A stretch of DNA of 12,834 nt from the IMG/VR virus record IMGVR_UViG_638341084_000023; one strand, 5' to 3'. The translations under genes were made by a program, and so were the position numbers. This DNA is from a virus (Duplodnaviria > Heunggongvirae > Uroviricota > Caudoviricetes). Positions 1 through 8,112 of the stretch are shown piece by piece; within the stretch, counting starts at the first letter, position 1; every line of letters starts with the position of its first letter. The notes below the pieces were generated by a model, which was not told the DNA's origin, made no database searches, and saw nothing but the letters and a program-made list of their open reading frames with translations.

Positions 1-138
1 CACCTCTATCGACTGACGGGGCGCGATGTTCTCCGTTATCGCCGTAAAAACTTCGATTTGATGACCGGTCTGGCCGTTGCCACTGCGCTCGGTCTGATCA
101 TCACTTTCATTCTCCTTGTTGCGAGGACCACAGTATGA
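1..138 (+). CDS. 3' end of an upstream gene (partial); hydrophobic C-terminal segment
   Basis: Frame 1 is open from base 1 to a TGA at 136-138 and ends ...[25 protein letters not shown]. The stop overlaps the next ATG (ATGA at 135-138), suggesting translational coupling. Could instead be a 25-aa peptide starting at the ATG at 61. Confidence 0.3.
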   Translation, partial: HLYRLTGRDVLRYRRKNFDLMTGLAVATALGLIITFILLVARTTV

Positions 139-1037
139 GTTTAGAAACCAGTCTCGAACTTAATAATCAACTTCTGGCACAACATAATGCGCTGCTTGAA
201 CGTCTTATCCGCACAATGGCATCAGGTATTGTTATGCATCCTGACACGATTTCACGAGTGCAGGAATGTCGGGATACAGCAACTGAAACTGAAAATATGT
301 CAGCGGCAATGACACTGGATGATCTGGAGTTCAGCGACGTTATCGCACTGGCTGGTTTCTACCCGGTAGCCACCCCTATCACAGAAGACATGCTGCAACG
401 TGCTGTTGCCTACCGTGATGCTGAAGGCGATAAACGAGTAGTTCAGATTGATCCTCTCGACAGCGCATTGCAGGGCGTCAAACGAGCCAGGGCACTGCAT
501 AAACCCGCTCTTCTGGACCTGTCCCGTAACATTCTTAAGTTCTGGGACGACCTGCCAACCATCGGCGAGCGACGTGCTTTTGCCGAGCAACTACTTGATG
601 CACCTGCAGATGGGCGTGATGAAGTTAAGCCGAAAAAGGCCAGTAACAAAGATGGAGAACGCACGGGGCCGTTTTACGTCAAAAATGTATCCGGCACAGC
701 AGCCAGTGAACTCCACACCTTACGCAAGTTGAACGAGATGCTTAAAAAAGGCCATATCGAGATCAACCGTGTTGAGTACCTTCAGCTGCAGGAAGAATTT
801 GCACGCAGAGACGCAGCAAATTCCAGCCAGAATAATGACGCCAAAGATGACCATACAATTGATTTCGCGGCACTACGCAAACAAGCTGAAGGGTTGATCC
901 TCCAGTTAGCAAAAGGGGGTTACCGGGCAGAAGCTATTGCAATTCTGGAAAAACAGGGAGCCAGGAAACTTGGTGAAGTAACGGATGAAAATCTCGCTGA
1001 AGTAATCACCCTGGCTGAAAAAGCACTGGAGGGTTAA
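135..1037 (+). CDS. hypothetical phage protein, first gene of the replication-module operon in this window
   Basis: 300-codon ORF, tightly packed with the next gene (stop 1035-1037, next ATG at 1040). No motif I can assign; N-terminal region looks coiled-coil-like. Confidence 0.7.
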
Positions 1038-1039
1038 TC

Positions 1040-2341
1040 ATGCCAGACGTTCATGCACAACTTTCTCCATCATCAGCGCATCGATGGATGCGCTGCCCAG
1101 GAAGTCTGGCGCTGGAGGCCACACAACCGGATAAAGAAACAACTTTTGCAATCGAGGGCACTGCAGCGCACGCGCTTGCTGAAAAAGTTCTACGAAACAG
1201 GCAAAGCCACCCGGAACACTACGCCGGATGCAATGTTTCTATGTTTCTCGGCTCATACCCCCTTCGCGAAAATCCTGATGATACATCTGGCCCACAGGTG
1301 GATGATGAAATGGTCGAAGCCGTTGGCCGGTATGTTGATACGGTCTGGACTCTTGCACAGAATAATGAACTATTGGTTGAACAACGTGTTGATTTCTCAC
1401 ATATAACGGGGGTGGAAGAATCTTTCGGAACTGCCGACGGCATAATCATCGCTGGTAACGAATTACAAATCCACGACCTGAAATATGGCAAAGGCGTCCG
1501 CATTGATGCAGAACAAAATGAGCAACTACAACTGTATGCTCTGGGTGCGCTCGAACAATTCAGCATGCTGTATGACTTTGAGACTGTAAGATTATTTATT
1601 CACCAGCCAAGGCTCAACCACGTTTCAGAATGGTCGTTAACCGTACAGGAACTTCAGTCTTTCGGTGAACGGGCACAGGAGGCCGCAACCAGTGCGATCC
1701 TTGTTCTCAATATTGCTGAATGCGAAGGCATTGAGACACTACCGCTGGAAAACTTCATACCTGGAGAAAAACAGTGCCGCTTCTGTAAAGCAAAAGCTAT
1801 TTGCACTGCCCAGAAAATGCAGCATTTACAAACAGCGGCCAGCGATTTTGAAGATCTGACAAAGCCTGTCAGCGAAATAATCACCAATGCCAGCGCACGT
1901 GTACCTCTGTTAACCATTGAGCAGCTTGCGGAGATCTATAGCCAGGCCGACTTTATTGAATCCTGGCTAAAGGCAGTACGGGACCGGGTTCACAATGAAC
2001 TCAATGCCGGACATCCGGTACCGGGGTTTAAACTGGTAACAGGAAAACAAGGTAACCGGGCCTGGAGTGATGAAGAGGCAGCTCGCGCACTTCTGAAGGA
2101 CCAGTTCAGGTACAAAACTGAAGAAGTATTCGACTTTAAACTTATTAGTCCCACAAAAGCCGAAAAACTTATCAAAAAGGCCAGTCCACGCCGTTGGTCA
2201 AAAGTCGAGGCACTGATAACACGAGCTGATGGTAAACCAACCGTCATTCCCGAGTCAGACCCACGCCCCGCACTCAATATCAACCCTGTAAATGATTTCG
2301 ACGACGTATCCGACGATACGCTAACCGCAGACCTCATCTGA
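1040..2341 (+). CDS. PD-(D/E)XK nuclease, DUF2800-type (Cas4/RecB-like phage exonuclease)
   Basis: N-terminal [15 protein letters not shown] is the signature I associate with DUF2800. Nuclease core D...IHDLKYGKG (D/E-x-K). Four cysteines arranged as one N-terminal Cys (RCPGS) plus [10 protein letters not shown] (C-x2-C-x5-C), as in Fe-S cluster Cas4/AddB-type nucleases. Confidence 0.8.
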
Positions 2342-2356
2342 TTTAAGGAAATACCC

Positions 2357-2905
2357 ATGAAACTGAAGCTGAACAATGTTCGTCTGGCCTTCCCGTCTCT
2401 GTTTGAAGCTAAAACTGTAAACGGCGAAGGCGATCCGCGTTTCTCCGCAGTATTTTTAATGTCTCCCAAACACCCACAACTGGAAGAAATCCGTAAAGCT
2501 ATGAAGCAGGTAGCGAAGGAAAAATGGGGAGAGAAGTGGGAGCCCATTTATAACCAGCTGGAGAAAAAACTCAATCTGTGCCTGCATGATGGTGATGAAA
2601 AAGCAGAGTATGAAGGCTTCCCCGGTAATTTCTTCCTGAATGCTGCTAACAAAGCGCGCCCAGCTGTTCTTGATCGCGATCGTTCGCCACTTATTCAGGC
2701 TGACGGACGTCCCTATGCAGGGTGCTATGTAAACGCCGTTATCGATATCTGGGCACAGGACAATAATTTCGGTAAACGCATTAATGCCTCACTCGGCGGA
2801 GTCCAGTTCCTGCGAGACGGCGATGCATTCGCTGGCGGCGGAGTGGCAAGCGCTGACGATTTCGACGATATCAGCGAAGGTGCTGATGCTGAAGCACTAA
2901 TTTAA
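2357..2905 (+). CDS. phage single-strand DNA-binding protein, DUF2815 / T7 gp2.5-like
   Basis: Starts MKLKLNNVRLAFPSLFE, typical of DUF2815. Ends in an acidic tail with aromatic residues (DDFDDISEGADAEALI), as in gp2.5-type SSBs. AAGGAA Shine-Dalgarno about 8 nt upstream. Sits immediately after the DUF2800 gene, the usual gene order. Confidence 0.7.
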   Translation: MKLKLNNVRLAFPSLFEAKTVNGEGDPRFSAVFLMSPKHPQLEEIRKAMKQVAKEKWGEKWEPIYNQLEKKLNLCLHDGDEKAEYEGFPGNFFLNAANKARPAVLDRDRSPLIQADGRPYAGCYVNAVIDIWAQDNNFGKRINASLGGVQFLRDGDAFAGGGVASADDFDDISEGADAEALI

Positions 2906-2920
2906 CCCTACTTCATAGAC

Positions 2921-2939
2921 GCCCGGTTAAACACCGGGC
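2921..2939. terminator. hairpin between convergent genes; possible bidirectional terminator
   Basis: Perfect 7-bp inverted repeat GCCCGGT / ACCGGGC around a 5-nt loop, between the stop of the SSB gene (2903-2905) and the stop of the minus-strand membrane gene (2958-2960). No clean U-tract on either strand, so function is uncertain. Confidence 0.3.
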
Positions 2940-2957
2940 TACTGATTAGGCGTATAA

Positions 2958-3587
2958 TCACTCAGGAATCTTAATCTTTCTCAATTCTTTATTTAGTTCA
3001 CAGATCTTTTTCTTAGACGGGAAAGTATCATACATCCAAAAACCAACAGTCTCTAAAACTATTATCATAACCATATACACAAGATAATTTAAAAGGCCTT
3101 CATTTTGCCCTATGGAAATAATGCAGATAATAGAAAAAAGGGTAAACAGCACAAAACACAGAAAGGAAAACAGACGACTAATAATAAATAAAAAACCTGA
3201 AAAATCAACATTAATAAAAAACACTCCGTTATCTTTCTCTATATAATTCTGAAGCTTAATCAACTGATTTATATACTGTCTTTTTTCTAATCTATTGCAA
3301 ATGTAAATAACATCTCTTCGGTTATAAGATGATTGCAATTTCAGCGCATCACGAATAATTTTATCATTTATTCTTTTTTCTATGGCACTCTTATCCTCCT
3401 CATCCAGATAACGTTCATACTTAACTAAATATAAAATTAACTTCTTAACATATTTAGGCTCTTTATACTTATAATTAAAAATGATCTTTCTTATCCAGAC
3501 TCCCATAACAATCAAACATGAAAAAATATATCCAGCTATTTTCTCCAGATGCTCTGTATGGTCAATCAAGTATTGGATCATATGCAT
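2958..3587 (-). CDS. AT-rich accessory (moron-like) gene; predicted membrane protein of unknown function
   Basis: 209-codon ORF in a region that is visibly much more AT-rich than its flanks, where stop codons would be frequent by chance. Encoded opposite to the surrounding operon. Hydrophobic segments near the N-terminus (IAGYIFSCLIVMGVWI) and two near the C-terminus (FLFIISRLFSFLCFVLFTLFSIICIISIG, LLNYLVYMVMIIVLETVGFWMY), with a K/E/Y-rich soluble middle. Confidence 0.6.
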   Translation of the reverse strand: MHMIQYLIDHTEHLEKIAGYIFSCLIVMGVWIRKIIFNYKYKEPKYVKKLILYLVKYERYLDEEDKSAIEKRINDKIIRDALKLQSSYNRRDVIYICNRLEKRQYINQLIKLQNYIEKDNGVFFINVDFSGFLFIISRLFSFLCFVLFTLFSIICIISIGQNEGLLNYLVYMVMIIVLETVGFWMYDTFPSKKKICELNKELRKIKIPE

Positions 3588-3633
3588 AATTAATCTTTTA
3601 ATCAGTTAATAGAATAAAAACCAAGGTAAACAC

Positions 3634-5697
3634 ATGTCCAATATACTATGGGGCGACCTGGAAACCTATTGCGAAATCCCTATTACGAACGGTACCCATG
3701 CGTATGCCGAAGGCGTTGAAGTGATGCTTTTCGCATGGGCTATCAACGACGGGCCAGTAAACGTGTGGGATATCACTGCCGGTGGTGGTATTCCACACGG
3801 CTTATACGAAGCAATCGCAGACCCTGAAACCCTGCTTTATTTCCATAACTCTCACTTCGACCGCACCGTTCTGCGTTATGCAATGCCGCGCCTGGCACCG
3901 CCAGTCGAACGTTGGCGCGACACAATGGTGCAGGCGCTGGCGCACGGTCTCCCGGGGTCTCTGGGGGAACTCTGCGAAGTACTAGGCGTCCCGCAAGACA
4001 AAGCGAAGGACAAAGAAGGTAAAGCGCTGATCCAGCTGTTCTGTAAGCCACGCCCGAAAAACAGCAAACTGCGCCGGGCCACCAGCAAAACCCACCCGGA
4101 AGAATGGCGGCGCTTTGTTGCTTACGCCGGACTGGATATCGAGGCAATGCGCGAAGTCTATAAACGTCTGCCGAAGTGGAATTATCAGGGGACAGAACTG
4201 GCGCTCTGGCATCGTGATCAGCAGATCAATGACCGGGGCGTCTGCATGGACGTGGAACTCGCACGCGCTGCGATCGACGCGGTAGACCAGGAACAAAAGC
4301 GCCTGGCAAAGCGTACACAGGAAATGACTGATGGCGAAGTGCAGGCAGCCACACAACGAGACGCGTTGATTAAGCACATTGTTGAATCCTACGGTGTGGA
4401 GCTACCAGACATGCAACGCAGTACTCTGGAACGTCGTATTGCCGACCCCGATTTACCATCTGCCGTGAAAGAACTGCTGGCTATCCGCCTGCAGGCCAGT
4501 ACTACCAGCACCAGTAAATACAAGGCACTGATGAAAGGCGTAAGCCACGACGGGCGCTTACGCGGTACGCTACAGTTCTGCGGGGCGTCACGTACCGGTC
4601 GTTGGGCCGGACGGCTATTCCAGCCCCAGAACCTTCCCCGCCCTTCACTAAAACAGGAACAAATAGACGAAGGCATCGAAGCACTGAAAGCCGGATGTGC
4701 AGACCTGCTGTTTGACAATATCATGGAACTAACCAGTTCAGCGTTACGTGGCTGCATTATCGCGCCAACAGGCAAAAAGCTGGTGGTAAGTGACTTGTCG
4801 AACATTGAAGGCCGTATGCTGGCATGGCTGGCGGGAGAAGAATGGAAACTGAATGCATTCAGAGAGTACGACGCCGGAACGGGTCCGGACTTATATAAAC
4901 TGGCGTATGCAAAAGCTTTCGATATTGCACCAGATGATGTTGATAAACACATGCGTCAGATCGGTAAAGTCATGGAACTCGGTCTGGGTTATGGTGGTGG
5001 TGTGTCGGCCTTCATCACTTTTGCACTGGTTTACGGTCTCGATCTCGACGAGCTGGCGAACGCCGCACTACCAAACATTCCCCGCGATGTTATCCGCGAG
5101 GCGAAAAGCTGGTACGACGAATCGGTTAAACGCAAGTCAACCTACGGGCTTTCTGAACGGGTATTTATCGCCTGCGACTCACTTAAACGTCTCTGGCGCC
5201 GGGCGCATCCCGCGACCTGTGATTTCTGGTACGAACTGGAGCGCACCGTCCGCACTGCAATCGCCACACCGCAAAAAACATTGTATTGCGGTTATCTTAA
5301 AATCCGCCGCGATGGCGCGTGGCTGCGCATACAGCTACCATCCGGACGCGCTGTATGCTACCCGTCTCCGGTTATCGAAAAAGGGAATATCACCTACATG
5401 GGGGTTAACTCTTATTCGCGTAAATGGCAACGACTCAAAACCTACGGCGGAAAGCTGGTGGAGAACATCACCCAGGCGGCCGCCCGCGACATTCTGGCCG
5501 GAAACATGCCGCTTATCGAAGATGCCGGTTACAGCATTGTGCTGACGGTACACAACGAGGTGATCACCGAAGCACCTGACACAGAAGATTTCAACGATAA
5601 AGCGCTTTCCGCGCTTCTCTCCACTGACCCCGAATGGGCGCCCGATATCCCACTGAACGCTGGCGGTTTTGAGGCGTACCACTACAAAAAAGATTGA
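3634..5697 (+). CDS. family A DNA polymerase with 3'-5' proofreading exonuclease domain (phage type)
   Basis: Exo I GDLETYCE (D-x-E), Exo II HNSHFD, Exo III YAGLD. Polymerase motif [15 protein letters not shown] (compare DYSQIELR), motif [17 protein letters not shown] (R-x3-K-x7-YG). Motif C reads VHNEV where HDE is expected. AAGG Shine-Dalgarno upstream. Confidence 0.9.
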
Positions 5698-5761
5698 TAT
5701 AACTCACCTTATCGAGCTATGGCGACATGCTGAATTCGAGTAAATTAAAGGAACAATACTT

Positions 5762-6523
5762 ATGCAGGAACTAACTGAAATGCCGATCACCTATCCATAC
5801 CCGAGAGAAACTTTTCCTGACTTTTTGAGGGAGTGTGGGTTCACCAATTTTTCCCACGAACAGCGTGAGACTTGTGACTGCTATCGTTTAACGAATGGCG
5901 TAATTGTTAACCTTTACACCACCCGGACCATTCAGTTTCAAGGTAACCCTCAAGAACGTCCCAATGTTGAAACTGCAATAATGACCCATTTAGGAACGCC
6001 GCCCACGGCAACACCACTAGCCGTAGAACAGCCATCTGAGCTCCCCAAAAAGATATTCATTGTTCACGGCCATGACCATACTGCAAAGGAGCAACTTGAG
6101 CTAATCCTTCATAAACTTGGATTACCAGACCATTTCATTTTGCAGAATACGGGAGGGACTGGACTCACCATTATTGAAGAGCTTGAACGTGAAATTGGGC
6201 AAGGACAAACTGCTACCCGTTTCGGGATTGTTCTTTTGACACCTGATGATATGGGATACTCAAAGCGCGCCGGTGAAGCAGAAATCCAACCCCGCGCAAG
6301 ACAGAACGTTGTACTCGAGATGGGTATGCTTCTTTCGTCCTTAGGGCGCAGCAATGTAGCAATCCTTCAGAAACAGCACCTAGAACAGCCTTCTGATGCT
6401 AACGGGATTTTGTATCTGAATTTCAACGACCATGTACGTGAAACAGTTCCTCGTCTAGTGCAACGGTTACAAAATTCTGGTTTCGAATTTACACAAGCTC
6501 AAATAGCTAACGCTTCCTCGTAA
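5762..6523 (+). CDS. two-domain protein: unknown Cys-containing N-terminal domain (about 95 aa) plus C-terminal TIR-like Rossmann nucleotide-binding domain; candidate defence effector
   Basis: C-terminal domain carries KKIFIVHGHD ... GIVLLTPDDMGY ... RARQNVVLEMGMLLSSLGRSNVAIL ... PSDANGILY. This matches my recollection of the TIR-like domain family (COG4271-type, as in CBASS Cap12 and TIR-STING TIR domains). Own AAAGGAA Shine-Dalgarno, own downstream terminator, and visibly lower GC and different codon choice than neighbours. Not verified by search. Confidence 0.55.
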   Translation: MQELTEMPITYPYPRETFPDFLRECGFTNFSHEQRETCDCYRLTNGVIVNLYTTRTIQFQGNPQERPNVETAIMTHLGTPPTATPLAVEQPSELPKKIFIVHGHDHTAKEQLELILHKLGLPDHFILQNTGGTGLTIIEELEREIGQGQTATRFGIVLLTPDDMGYSKRAGEAEIQPRARQNVVLEMGMLLSSLGRSNVAILQKQHLEQPSDANGILYLNFNDHVRETVPRLVQRLQNSGFEFTQAQIANASS

Positions 6524-6546
6524 TTACCCCTTATTGTTGATTACAA

Positions 6547-6570
6547 CCCTGCATCGCGGGGTTTTTTATT
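6547..6570 (+). terminator. rho-independent terminator after the TIR-like gene
   Basis: GC-rich hairpin CCCTGC-atc-GCGGGG (one G-U pair) directly followed by TTTTTTATTT, about 25 bp after the stop at 6521-6523. Confidence 0.5.
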
Positions 6571-6602
6571 TGGGAATAAAAACCCTATGTCATTTAAATA
6601 CC

Positions 6603-6664
6603 GGGACAGTCCGCTTTATTACCGGACTGTGCGGGAGGCTTTGCACCTTGAACAGTCCGGCGGG
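6603..6664. promoter_or_regulatory. three copies of an ACAGTCCG(G) motif (direct, inverted, direct) in the 234-bp intergenic region; candidate operator or iteron set
   Basis: GGGACAGTCCG at 6603-6613, CCGGACTGT at 6622-6630 (reverse complement) and ACAGTCCGG at 6652-6660. Copies 2 and 3 form a perfect 9-bp inverted repeat separated by 21 bp. Lies upstream of the strong-RBS gene at 6758. Confidence 0.3.
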
Positions 6665-6757
6665 TACGACCGGGCGATGCAGGTCTGGGCCAAAGCGAAC
6701 GTCGGTTTGATTTTTGTCTGATGCAGAACATGCGCGAAAAGCGTAAGGAGGTGGACG

Positions 6758-6952
6758 ATGTCTAATATCGATAATAAGGGTTGGGGGTTCCCCGCTCTGT
6801 CAAAAAAAGCACATTTCTTTAATTCGGGGGAAGCCATATCACTATGCGGAAAATGGATGTTCATAGGTATCAGGATTGATGAATGGCATGACCATCCTGA
6901 GAACTGCGCTATCTGCATGAAGAAACGCAAAAAGCAGGAAGGCGAAAGCTAA
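6758..6952 (+). CDS. small Cys/His-containing protein (possible zinc-ribbon), unknown function
   Basis: Strong AAGGAGGT Shine-Dalgarno 5 nt upstream of the ATG. Residues C30, H44, H46, C51, C54 (CGKW...HDHPENCAIC). Stop overlaps the next ATG (TAATG), suggesting coupling to the VRR-NUC gene. Confidence 0.5.
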   Translation: MSNIDNKGWGFPALSKKAHFFNSGEAISLCGKWMFIGIRIDEWHDHPENCAICMKKRKKQEGES

Positions 6953-7239
6953 TGGCCTATGAACGTGAAAACCTAATCGAAAAGCACCTCGTCGCTGAAG
7001 TAAAAAAGGCTGGCGGGGTTGCCTTTAAGTTCGTATCCCCCGGTCGCCGCTCGGTACCAGATCGCATTGTTCTGCTACCCGGCGGTCGTATCATTTTCGT
7101 TGAATGTAAATCCCCCGGCAAGCCACCACGGCCTGACCAGTTGCGCGAACACGGACGGTTGCGCGCGCTGGGCTTTACCGTAGTGGTGCTGGATAGCAAA
7201 AATCTGGAGGCCATTATTTTAAGCCGCAATAAAGGATAA
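6952..7239 (+). CDS. VRR-NUC domain nuclease (PD-(D/E)XK fold)
   Basis: About 95 aa with VPDRIVLLPGGRIIFVECKSPG (PD...E-x-K) followed by Q...G, the layout of VRR-NUC. This family is classically linked to SNF2 helicases in phages, and one lies downstream. Confidence 0.7.
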   Translation: MAYERENLIEKHLVAEVKKAGGVAFKFVSPGRRSVPDRIVLLPGGRIIFVECKSPGKPPRPDQLREHGRLRALGFTVVVLDSKNLEAIILSRNKG

Positions 7240-7251
7240 AAGACTTATGCT

Positions 7252-8049
7252 TTAATCCGTATTTTTAACACGTATTTCGAAACACCCTTTTAATTTAGCT
7301 ATTTCCTTTTTAGAGGACATGATTGTGAATCTCATCCCTTTTAAATCATTAACAAATTCAAATTTTGCGCTATTTGACTCACAATCACCAACAACAAAAC
7401 CACTACCAAATGAATTGAGCAACACTTTAGTATTACTACCATCTACCATATAATATTCGTTATTTTTAAATGCAGTAACCTTCCCGAATGTATAGCTCAA
7501 TATCAACAACGTTATCACCCCTAAAGGAAAAGCTGACTTTAGGATTTTTAAATCGATATAATAAAATACGTTCTTATACTCTGCAAGCCTCCCAAATTTT
7601 CTAATGCTCTCCATATGATGTTCGTGTCTCTTACTATGGATTGGCATGGACACCACATTGTGATAATTCAACAAAAGCATAGCAAATAATAAAATATCCT
7701 GAACACTCATCACAGAAGTTTCGGAGAAATAACCAAAAGGCCAATGAAATCCTATTATACAAATATTAGCCATTAGCATAACAACTATAAATACAATAAA
7801 TGGAACATAATATTTCCCTTTCAAATCAAACATCAACGCCGCATATAAGGCGCCGAGAAATAAAAAACTAAAAAACAAAAGCCACACAGCCGAATACAAT
7901 AGCGTATTTAAGTCTATTTTAATAAAAAGGTCTGGATAGCCATAATACGATGCAACACCTTTCTGAAAAGAATATGCCATCGCATAAGCTAACGCTGAAA
8001 ACATAGTTAATAAAGAAACTTGCTTTGTAAATATTTTCGCCAGGGGCAT
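7252..8049 (-). CDS. AT-rich accessory (moron-like) gene; polytopic membrane protein with C-terminal soluble domain, unknown function
   Basis: 265-codon ORF in a second strongly AT-rich block, opposite strand to the operon. About five hydrophobic helices in residues 10-190, then a soluble C-terminal region of about 70 aa. GGAGG Shine-Dalgarno 5 nt upstream of the ATG on the minus strand. Confidence 0.6.
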   Translation of the reverse strand: MPLAKIFTKQVSLLTMFSALAYAMAYSFQKGVASYYGYPDLFIKIDLNTLLYSAVWLLFFSFLFLGALYAALMFDLKGKYYVPFIVFIVVMLMANICIIGFHWPFGYFSETSVMSVQDILLFAMLLLNYHNVVSMPIHSKRHEHHMESIRKFGRLAEYKNVFYYIDLKILKSAFPLGVITLLILSYTFGKVTAFKNNEYYMVDGSNTKVLLNSFGSGFVVGDCESNSAKFEFVNDLKGMRFTIMSSKKEIAKLKGCFEIRVKNTD

Positions 8050-8065
8050 ACCCGCCTCCGTTAGT

Positions 8066-8083
8066 TATATATATAGAGAGAGA
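8066..8083. repeat. simple-sequence tract (TA)5(GA)4 in the 63-bp divergent intergenic region
   Basis: tatatatata gagagaga read directly, between the start of the minus-strand membrane gene (8049) and the start of the helicase gene (8113). Confidence 0.6.
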
Positions 8084-8112
8084 AGTGACCATATTCTACC
8101 ATAGGTGTATTA

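Follow-up and report, generated by a model that had tools for sequence, protein, structure and literature searches.

The question raised by this locus is why an AT-rich block of DNA that encodes a small membrane protein on the opposite strand lies inside the replication operon of a temperate phage. The block (positions 2906-3633) is part of a 12,834-nucleotide stretch of the IMG/VR virus record IMGVR_UViG_638341084_000023 (the whole stretch is hereafter called the window), which derives from a temperate Escherichia coli myovirus prophage integrated beside yfhL. Positions 1-9959 of the window are 100% identical to E. coli strain FDAARGOS_1059, from which it differs by an insertion sequence (IS) further right. 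The rightward replication module starts with a hypothetical gene (135-1037), a DUF2800/PD-(D/E)XK nuclease gene (1040-2341) and the gene of an Enc34-type single-stranded DNA-binding protein (SSB; DUF2815, Pfam PF10991, E 7.6e-44; 2357-2905, plus strand), and continues beyond the block with a family A DNA polymerase gene (Pol, or PolA; Pfam PF00476; 3634-5697, plus strand) followed by genes for a TIR protein, a VRR-NUC protein and an SNF2 helicase. The SSB and Pol genes are kept in all variants of the locus and form its conserved left and right flanks. The analysis described here shows that the interval between them is with good support a diversity hotspot in which cassettes are swapped, and that the cassette of this prophage encodes a predicted three-helix inner-membrane protein which may protect the lysogen against other phages.

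The block has a GC content of 0.299, against 0.489 for positions 1-2905 and 0.542 for the polymerase gene. It holds a single intact open reading frame (ORF) at 2958-3587 on the minus strand, which begins with ATG and encodes 209 amino acids plus a stop codon, with a GC content of 0.29 (0.31 at third codon positions) versus 0.50 in the flanks. The longest stop-free run within the block is 215 codons, and none of 10,000 randomised versions of the block (5,000 mononucleotide shuffles and 5,000 first-order Markov resamplings) reached 209 codons, their longest frames being 140 and 157 codons with means of 62-64. The start of the ORF is separated from the Pol ATG by 46 bp (3588-3633) and its stop from the SSB stop by 52 bp. 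Since the ORF is convergent with SSB and divergent from Pol, a rightward replication transcript must cross it in antisense. An earlier note on this DNA, made from its letters alone, had claimed a sharp drop in base composition between the SSB stop and the polymerase start, a 630-bp opposite-strand ORF that would be improbable by chance, a distance of 46 bp from the polymerase start, and transcription converging or interleaving with the replication operon, and these values bear out all of those claims.

One alternative is that the frame is open by chance and that the AT-rich block is non-coding, serving as a regulatory spacer or an origin-like region. AT-rich intergenic blocks can indeed be regulatory, and the ATG is not preceded by a ribosome-binding site of good quality. 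This alternative is nevertheless effectively refuted, and its probability put close to nil, because of the randomisations, the existence of protein-level homologues encoded by different DNA, and the pattern of substitution: synonymous changes outnumber non-synonymous ones, and the ratio of the two kinds of polymorphism (pN/pS) between close E. coli alleles is 0.24-0.36, based on small counts. An Rfam search of the block gave no match. The 209-amino-acid protein is thus genuine and under purifying selection.

The variability of the interval was then assessed in two samples. The SSB-Pol backbone was present in 159 of 5,426 complete E. coli genomes, and a wider survey by means of the SSB protein provided 76 related IMG/VR phage contigs with both flanks. 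The 209-amino-acid cassette was present in 67 of the 159 E. coli backbones, always as one copy and always in the SSB/Pol slot; an Nmad5 gene, alone or together with an 89- or a 229-amino-acid minus-strand ORF, occupied the slot in 58, a 199-amino-acid minus-strand ORF in 13, and BRO-N, AntA/B or other genes in the remainder. The 76 phage contigs showed at least 12 cargo types as well as an empty state between the conserved SSB and PolA genes. The slot was empty in 10 of them, where the two flanking genes are separated by 74-80 bp with a GC content of 0.56-0.64, and had about 257 bp without an ORF in 2. The other contigs carried the 209-amino-acid cassette (9/76), the 199-amino-acid protein (10/76; 3 alone and 7 beside a BRO/Ant-like gene), a divergent 223-amino-acid relative (1/76), Nmad5 (20/76), an unrelated N-anchored AT-rich minus-strand protein of 166-174 amino acids (8/76), a SIR2-like protein matching PADLOC PDC-S25 (E 3.9e-157) and Pfam SIR2_2 (5/76), an SPFH/Band-7 lipoprotein (4/76), a 67-amino-acid ORF (4/76), a DUF4145 protein (1/76) or unclassified sequence (2/76). 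Because the slot can be empty and holds many other cargos, the gene is not a conserved replication component, and that candidate reading was rejected on the strength of the empty slot in 10 of the 76 relatives and of family members found in unrelated contexts.

The earlier note had also interpreted the gene as a horizontally acquired moron, had named carriage by all relatives as the finding that would speak against this, and had suggested comparison with related prophages. What that comparison returned was a cassette present in some E. coli backbones and missing from others, flanking genes that are adjacent without it in relatives, and varied cargo elsewhere, all of which favour the moron interpretation. 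The base composition also deviates, with a trend that is repeated in 11 contexts of the gene family. As in classical, Hendrix-type morons, the gene is extra, its slot can be empty, its composition is deviant and its orientation is independent; the classical definition in addition includes an own promoter and terminator, where the present locus has a weak candidate promoter and a hairpin without a U-tract. We consider the moron and hotspot interpretation of positions 2906-3633 as an AT-rich (GC 0.30) swappable cassette to be well supported by the breakpoints and the presence/absence counts.

The locus is small and of high turnover, which places it with the prophage diversity hotspots described by Rousset et al. 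(2022; PMC9122126). Like the P2 and P4 hotspots of that study, it lies between two conserved phage genes, and its cargo includes a defence-type gene (PDC-S25, with PDC-S35 adjacent) and some transmembrane (TM) proteins. It differs from them in belonging to another phage lineage and in being located inside the replication operon and not next to cos. In addition, many of its fillings are antisense to the operon, much of the cargo, such as Nmad5 and BRO/Ant, is not evidently defensive, and the systems found here are candidates.

Junction alignments defined the borders of the cassette. In comparison to the Nmad5 and 199-amino-acid variants, identity breaks off right at the SSB TAA and returns right at the Pol ATG, and the sequence directly 5' of the conserved Pol ATG differs in each slot variant. 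Because identity breaks at these two codons, each cassette supplies the ribosome-binding site of Pol, which in this prophage corresponds to positions 3620-3633 (plus strand) with AAGG 8 nt before the ATG. The first ~34 nt of the block, including a hairpin described below, are common to the BRO/Ant variants. We propose homologous recombination within the conserved genes on either side as the means of cassette exchange, each cassette bringing its own polymerase ribosome-binding site. Transposition of the cassette was considered and rejected, as no convincing terminal repeats were seen and all 67 copies occupy one slot. A near-identical direct repeat of 9-10 nt, GGT(T)AAACAC, is present at the cassette borders, at 2925-2934 in the hairpin loop and at 3624-3633 directly before the Pol ATG, and is probably due to chance, curious as these positions are.

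Several of the other fillings have features of their own. The Nmad5-family 'nucleotide modification' gene is the second commonest filling (L002, L004 and the 58 E. coli genomes; L-numbers denote individual loci) and is often paired with a minus-strand gene for either the 89-amino-acid protein, which has two TM helices, or the 229-amino-acid protein, which is soluble. The SIR2-like gene is on the plus strand, has a GC content of 0.34 and encodes a ThsA-like SIR2 protein of 493-500 amino acids (L043, L052, L053 and L069; split in L056). The proteins of 166-174 amino acids consist of an N-terminal membrane anchor and a soluble domain (L094-L098, L103, L106 and L078), and the one representative scanned, of 173 amino acids, gave no PADLOC or Pfam match.

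The next issue is what kind of protein the cassette encodes and how widely its family is distributed. The protein is of the WP_000551017 type and belongs to phrog_10579. A HMMER search that covered all of 1.84 billion representative proteins returned ten relatives, including full-length proteins of about 210 amino acids at 25-43% identity. A combined profile run against 5.8 billion proteins yielded 23 clusters at the 90% identity level, so that the family is very small; all clusters with a named organism come from Enterobacterales, and all named ones are called hypothetical. Conservation among homologues spans the whole length, the first 27 residues and TM1 included. NCBI annotates the full 209 amino acids and phrog_10579 covers residues 28-209; the internal start at Met28 that the shorter form implies was rejected, as Met28 is not conserved, whereas residues 1-27 are conserved in the homologues that share 25-43% identity. 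The 199-amino-acid slot protein had no BLASTP similarity to the 209-amino-acid protein, but its comparison with the family profile gave an hhalign probability of 96.5% (E 8.8e-10, 190 columns, 18% identity), and the 223-amino-acid slot protein matched the family with a hidden Markov model E of 3.7e-23 and an hhalign probability of 98%, so by profile comparison both are remote homologues. Some family member is found in 20 of the 76 phage contigs and 80 of the 159 E. coli backbones, always on the minus strand; the 209- or 199-amino-acid allele is present in 80 of the 5,426 complete E. coli genomes (~1.5%). A Klebsiella aerogenes prophage uses the same SSB/Pol slot for a family member (L023). No homology was found by comparison to three other AT-rich candidates, namely the ORF at 7252-8049 of the window, the DUF6338 neighbour of a Serratia homologue, and the slot proteins of 166-174 amino acids.

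The protein has no match in Pfam, NCBIfam, PDB sequences, or by Foldseek in BFVD and PDB; PADLOC-DB v2 gave no match at E<=1 for it and none at E<=0.01 for the 223-amino-acid protein. Literature searches by phage name and accession likewise gave no match. The family is uncharacterised and absent from Pfam and PADLOC, with one allele already flagged computationally as a defence candidate (see below).

These data also bear on the idea that the gene is a selfish or toxic, addiction-type membrane protein, or neutral cargo that the hotspot tolerates. H-NS frequently silences AT-rich genes in E. coli, and in a natural allele from E. coli F1022 (L019) residues ~72-102, which lie between two EKR repeats, have been lost through an in-frame deletion of 93 bp. 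Against this idea are the purifying selection indicated by pN/pS, the retention of length, topology and motifs down to ~18% identity and across five genera, and the independent recruitment of the gene into many element types, which together make it very unlikely. The 209-amino-acid ORF is intact in enterotoxigenic E. coli H10407 (L021), in which the polymerase gene is frameshifted, and in the window, in which the integrase is interrupted by an IS.

Outside the SSB/Pol slot, homologues were found in a range of genetic contexts. In phage P2, the interval from S to V contains an AT-rich, non-essential gene that is a classical example of a moron, and one family member is located in just this interval of the tail genes in a P2-like prophage (L008). 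Another lies immediately upstream of the Q antiterminator of a lambdoid prophage, with GAPS4-type PDDEXK, methylase-HNH and dGTPase-like genes nearby (L014), and a third, encoded on the opposite strand, is flanked by a PAPS-reductase-like gene and RecT (L016). Further homologues are found near TraG_N in an integrative and conjugative element (ICE; L011), at the end of a CP4-like island (L022), and in an integrase-linked island of Serratia sp. Ag1 beside an AAA_21/AAA_15 ATPase and a type I restriction-modification specificity subunit (L007). In Xenorhabdus chromosomes the gene stands alone with long upstream spacers (L009, L024), in a conserved position beside thrS. Since no neighbour is conserved across these contexts, the gene appears to work alone, and it can be called autonomous, given that it turns up by itself, and AT-rich, in many kinds of unrelated mobile element. 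Family genes are lower in GC than their flanks in 11 of 11 contexts (0.28-0.40 vs 0.40-0.57), and because all eleven show it, low GC characterises the family as such and is more than a mark of recent transfer. In the Serratia island, an AT-rich gene for a DUF6338 membrane protein (6805-7404 of L007) lies directly upstream of the homologue and is unrelated to the family by hhalign.

The position of the gene between SSB and Pol, which recurs in E. coli and Klebsiella prophages, could also mean that the protein serves the lytic cycle of the phage itself, for example in replisome tethering, host takeover or lysis timing. Among holin families the best match was only phrog_2508 at E 0.37, which is holin-like but not significant, and there was no Pfam holin match. 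A lytic role is further opposed by the orientation of the gene, which runs antisense to the replication operon, by its dispensability (most slots that are not empty carry unrelated cargo), and by the homologues in tail modules, beside Q, and in an ICE, islands and a chromosome without replication genes nearby. We therefore regard such a role as unlikely.

The architecture of the protein was predicted from hydropathy, charge distribution, the family alignment and an AlphaFold2 (AF2) model built with 14 homologues (predicted local distance difference test, pLDDT, 75.7; predicted template-modelling score, pTM, 0.58). Hydropathy shows an N-terminal hydrophobic helix at ~17-32 and C-terminal helices at ~128-158 and 165-186 around a K/E/Y-rich middle. 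The AF2 model agrees, and the arrangement of hydrophobic helices around a charged middle that the earlier note had described was thereby recovered. The model places TM1 at 11-36, helices of the middle domain at 45-56, 63-82, 90-99 and 103-111, a beta-hairpin at 116-125, the TM2-TM3 hairpin at 132-160 and 165-188, and a C-terminal helix at 192-202. The family charge counts are +1/-3 for the N-terminus, +22/-13 for the middle and +7/-4 for the C-terminal tail, and the 6-residue loop is without K/R in most members. Because of these counts and the positive-inside rule, the N-terminus is predicted to be periplasmic and nearly all of the soluble mass cytoplasmic.

In genomic coordinates, all on the minus strand, the protein is thus predicted to comprise an acidic/His periplasmic N-terminus (residues 1-16; 3540-3587), TM helix 1 (residues ~17-32; 3492-3539), which is also conserved in the family, a basic helical middle domain of ~95 amino acids with a beta-hairpin in the cytoplasm (residues 33-127; 3207-3491), a TM2-loop-TM3 hairpin with a 6-amino-acid periplasmic loop (residues 128-186; 3030-3206) and a basic cytoplasmic C-terminal tail or helix (residues 187-209; 2961-3029). 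The alignment shows the motifs YL.KY..YLS..DK.YIK..IN.EIM and NR..LIYI.N in the middle domain and P....I..IN.EL.K in the C-terminal tail. The only invariant residues are Asn199 and Leu202; Glu179 in TM3 is conserved in most branches and absent from the 199-amino-acid, P0010 and P0011 branches. No domain match was found for the middle domain, and a winged-helix fold, considered for residues ~60-125, was not supported by any sequence or fold match. As a prediction, a three-TM inner-membrane protein is well supported.

The central question is then what such a protein would do for the prophage. We infer an anti-phage role because defence-type genes (PDC-S25 and PDC-S35) occupy the hotspot and the adjacent slot, because several homologues sit in defence-rich neighbourhoods, because the alleles are strongly diverged and yet keep their architecture, as expected of genes in conflict, because layout, composition and strand arrangement mirror those of P22 SieA, and because DefensePredictor lists a near-identical allele. 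That allele, WP_000551021.1 (209 amino acids; found in L018 and L021), differs from the window protein by six residues. In Table S10 of the DefensePredictor study (Science 2026; PMC13092281) it is entered as 'Predicted novel defense gene', with a mean log-odds of 6.1 (min 2.9, max 9.5) versus a strict cutoff of 4 and without a HHblits or Foldseek match. An anti-phage function, for which the earlier note had named a superinfection-exclusion or abortive-infection protein as examples, is on this evidence plausible, with about an even chance of being right.

The closest known parallel is SieA of phage P22, a protein of 164 amino acids that is encoded on the opposite strand at a GC content of 0.34 in a genome of 0.47 and expressed from the prophage (Leavitt et al., 2024; PMC10883804). 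SieA has an N-terminal TM helix, a charged cytoplasmic segment, a C-terminal TM pair and a basic C-tail motif, and the 209-amino-acid protein is like it by prediction, including the three TM helices and the cytoplasmic C-terminus to which hydropathy, charge bias and AF2 point. The two genes are similarly AT-rich (0.34 vs 0.47 for SieA; 0.29 vs 0.48 here), and both run against the adjacent operon and converge with it. SieA sequence types share less than 30% identity with the same TM pattern (PMC10883804), and the present family has diverged likewise. The proteins differ in the cytoplasmic domain, which has 95 amino acids here versus ~45 in SieA and is predicted to be helical with a beta-hairpin, and the host phage here is a myovirus with a different DNA-delivery apparatus. 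Membership of the SieA family was rejected, as hhalign of the family profile against P22 SieA gave a probability of 0.2% and the C-terminal FxRYPxEAxxFNK motif of SieA types A-C is absent; homology to SieB was rejected at the same hhalign probability of 0.2%.

Under the proposed explanation, the protein would be made while the prophage is repressed, without dependence on the antisense replication operon, and would act at the inner membrane to guard the lysogen from incoming phages. It might obstruct DNA delivery in the manner of P22 SieA, or its cytoplasmic domain might sense an infection cue upon which the TM2-TM3 hairpin compromises the membrane. The predicted location of the conserved parts in the cytoplasm leans slightly towards intracellular sensing or contact with the cytoplasmic face of the injection channel. 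The diverged slot alleles of 209, 199 and 223 amino acids (~18% identity) may be specificity variants produced by an arms race. Taken as a whole, this explanation of a prophage-borne moron membrane protein that shields the lysogen from other phages is a candidate to which we attach as much belief as doubt.

The second of these options can be put more specifically as an abortive-infection effector, in which the cytoplasmic domain senses a phage product, TM2-TM3 with its buried Glu179 oligomerises, the membrane is depolarised and the cell is killed. It is consistent with the prediction that nearly all soluble mass and all invariant residues are cytoplasmic, with the mostly conserved acidic residue inside TM3, and with the neighbouring TIR gene, which shows that the element carries cargo of the abortive-infection type; according to the hotspot survey of Rousset et al., TM proteins in known systems usually act as suicide effectors (PMC9122126). 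Evidence to the contrary is that the gene has neither a sensor gene as partner nor a neighbour that is kept from context to context, that Glu179 is missing from three branches of the family, and that no similarity was found to RexB, holins or pore formers. We regard this mechanism as possible but doubtful, and its share of belief is contained within that given to the protective explanation as a whole.

A different kind of protection is conceivable, in that the gene could encode a lysogenic-conversion protein unrelated to phages, such as an orphan immunity protein against pore-forming colicins or against contact-dependent or type VI secretion system membrane toxins, or a stress or envelope modulator. 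Small opposite-strand AT-rich genes for multi-TM inner-membrane proteins are typical of pore-former immunity genes, the alleles are highly diverse, and Xenorhabdus, where the gene is found alone in the chromosome, is rich in bacteriocins. No cognate toxin gene was found nearby in any context, however, there was no Pfam match to immunity families, and the large cytoplasmic domain is atypical of such proteins. This too appears improbable, to about the degree of a lytic-cycle role.

A number of observations weigh against the protective explanation itself. The 209-amino-acid protein shows homology neither to SieA or SieB nor to any entry of PADLOC, Pfam or PDB. The listing of WP_000551021.1 is a computational call, and the allele does not appear in the consulted tables of cloned and validated units (PMC13092281), from a study in which 45% of cloned units were validated and which offers neither a mechanism nor a description of the family or its hotspot; its score is moreover not independent of the context argument, because genomic context is among the inputs of the model. 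Cargo without an evident defence role (Nmad5, BRO/Ant, SPFH) is likewise found in the slot, and defence-type cargo amounts to PDC-S25 in 5 of the 76 slots and PDC-S35 in the neighbouring slot, with most of the cargo being unannotated or not evidently defensive. The predicted periplasmic exposure is limited to ~16 amino acids plus the 6-amino-acid loop, and it is not obvious how so little could engage an injection apparatus; the position beside thrS in Xenorhabdus could indicate a housekeeping-like role there.

The expression signals add to these reservations. The ribosome-binding site before the ATG of the ORF is, as mentioned, poor. The only sigma-70-like promoter candidate found by the promoter scan (3611-3640, minus strand; TGGACA-18 nt-TATTCT) has a -35 element that overlaps Pol codons 1-3 and would place the transcription start near 3602-3604; promoter-like sites are no commoner in the block than in shuffled sequence, and there are only 46 bp upstream of the ORF. 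A promoter common to minus-strand cargo and anchored on the conserved TGGACA in Pol codons 1-3 was not supported, as no corresponding site passed the scan in L002, L003, L004 or L023. Between the convergent ORF ends lies a GC-rich hairpin (2921-2939; GCCCGGT-TAAAC-ACCGGGC, 7-bp stem) that was recognised from the sequence, the junctions and folding (folding energies of -17 and -20.4 kcal/mol, z -2.6 and -3.1). It lacks a U-tract here, although a T-run follows it in the BRO/Ant variants, and a terminator scan found none.

An extension of the protective explanation would make the family a novel anti-phage module that consists of one membrane-embedded protein, with a new cytoplasmic sensor fold, phage specificities set by the strongly diverged alleles of one slot, and recurrent antisense placement acting as a switch, so that the gene would be on in the lysogen and silenced by read-through during the phage's own replication, which would avoid self-exclusion. 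We consider this extension rather unlikely. The antisense-in-operon layout offers a simple and testable model for shutting off a prophage defence during the prophage's own lytic growth. If the protein is protective, it would be a sequence-novel single-gene membrane defence in ~1.5% of complete E. coli genomes. The interval from the Enc34-type SSB gene to PolA is in addition a new and easily recognised hotspot for mining phage-conflict genes, already known to hold SIR2, TIR-adjacent and Nmad5 cargo and two unrelated AT-rich membrane-protein families, and even if the protein gives no protection, the locus remains a clear-cut case from nature of cassettes being exchanged precisely at gene boundaries.

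Finally, variability in this prophage extends beyond the SSB/Pol interval. Directly downstream of Pol, on the plus strand at 5762-6523, is a gene for a TIR-domain protein that matches Pfam CAP12/Pycsar-TIR (E 2.9e-31) and PADLOC PDC-S35 (E 6.8e-109). The L003 and L004 variants lack this gene and have an ANR regulator after Pol, and the position downstream of Pol is a third variable position with defence-type cargo. At about 6587-6765, the matching stretch of the identical prophage is annotated by NCBI as a frameshifted ANR-family regulator (pseudogene). Between the VRR-NUC and SNF2 helicase genes, the minus strand carries a second AT-rich ORF (7252-8049; GC 0.33), whose 265-amino-acid product has several hydrophobic helices and no Pfam, PADLOC or NCBIfam match. 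This ORF is present in only 17 E. coli genomes and, because two plus-strand genes replace it in phage vB_EcoM-606R2, its position represents a second variable slot in the operon. Further right, positions 9960-11213 are occupied by an IS3-like element of ~1.25 kb, with orfA at 10853-11161 and orfB, which has rve domains, at 9990-10856. The element interrupts the tyrosine integrase gene of the prophage, which is intact (465 amino acids) in the otherwise identical prophage of FDAARGOS_1059, and the prophage in the present strain is thus probably unable to excise.

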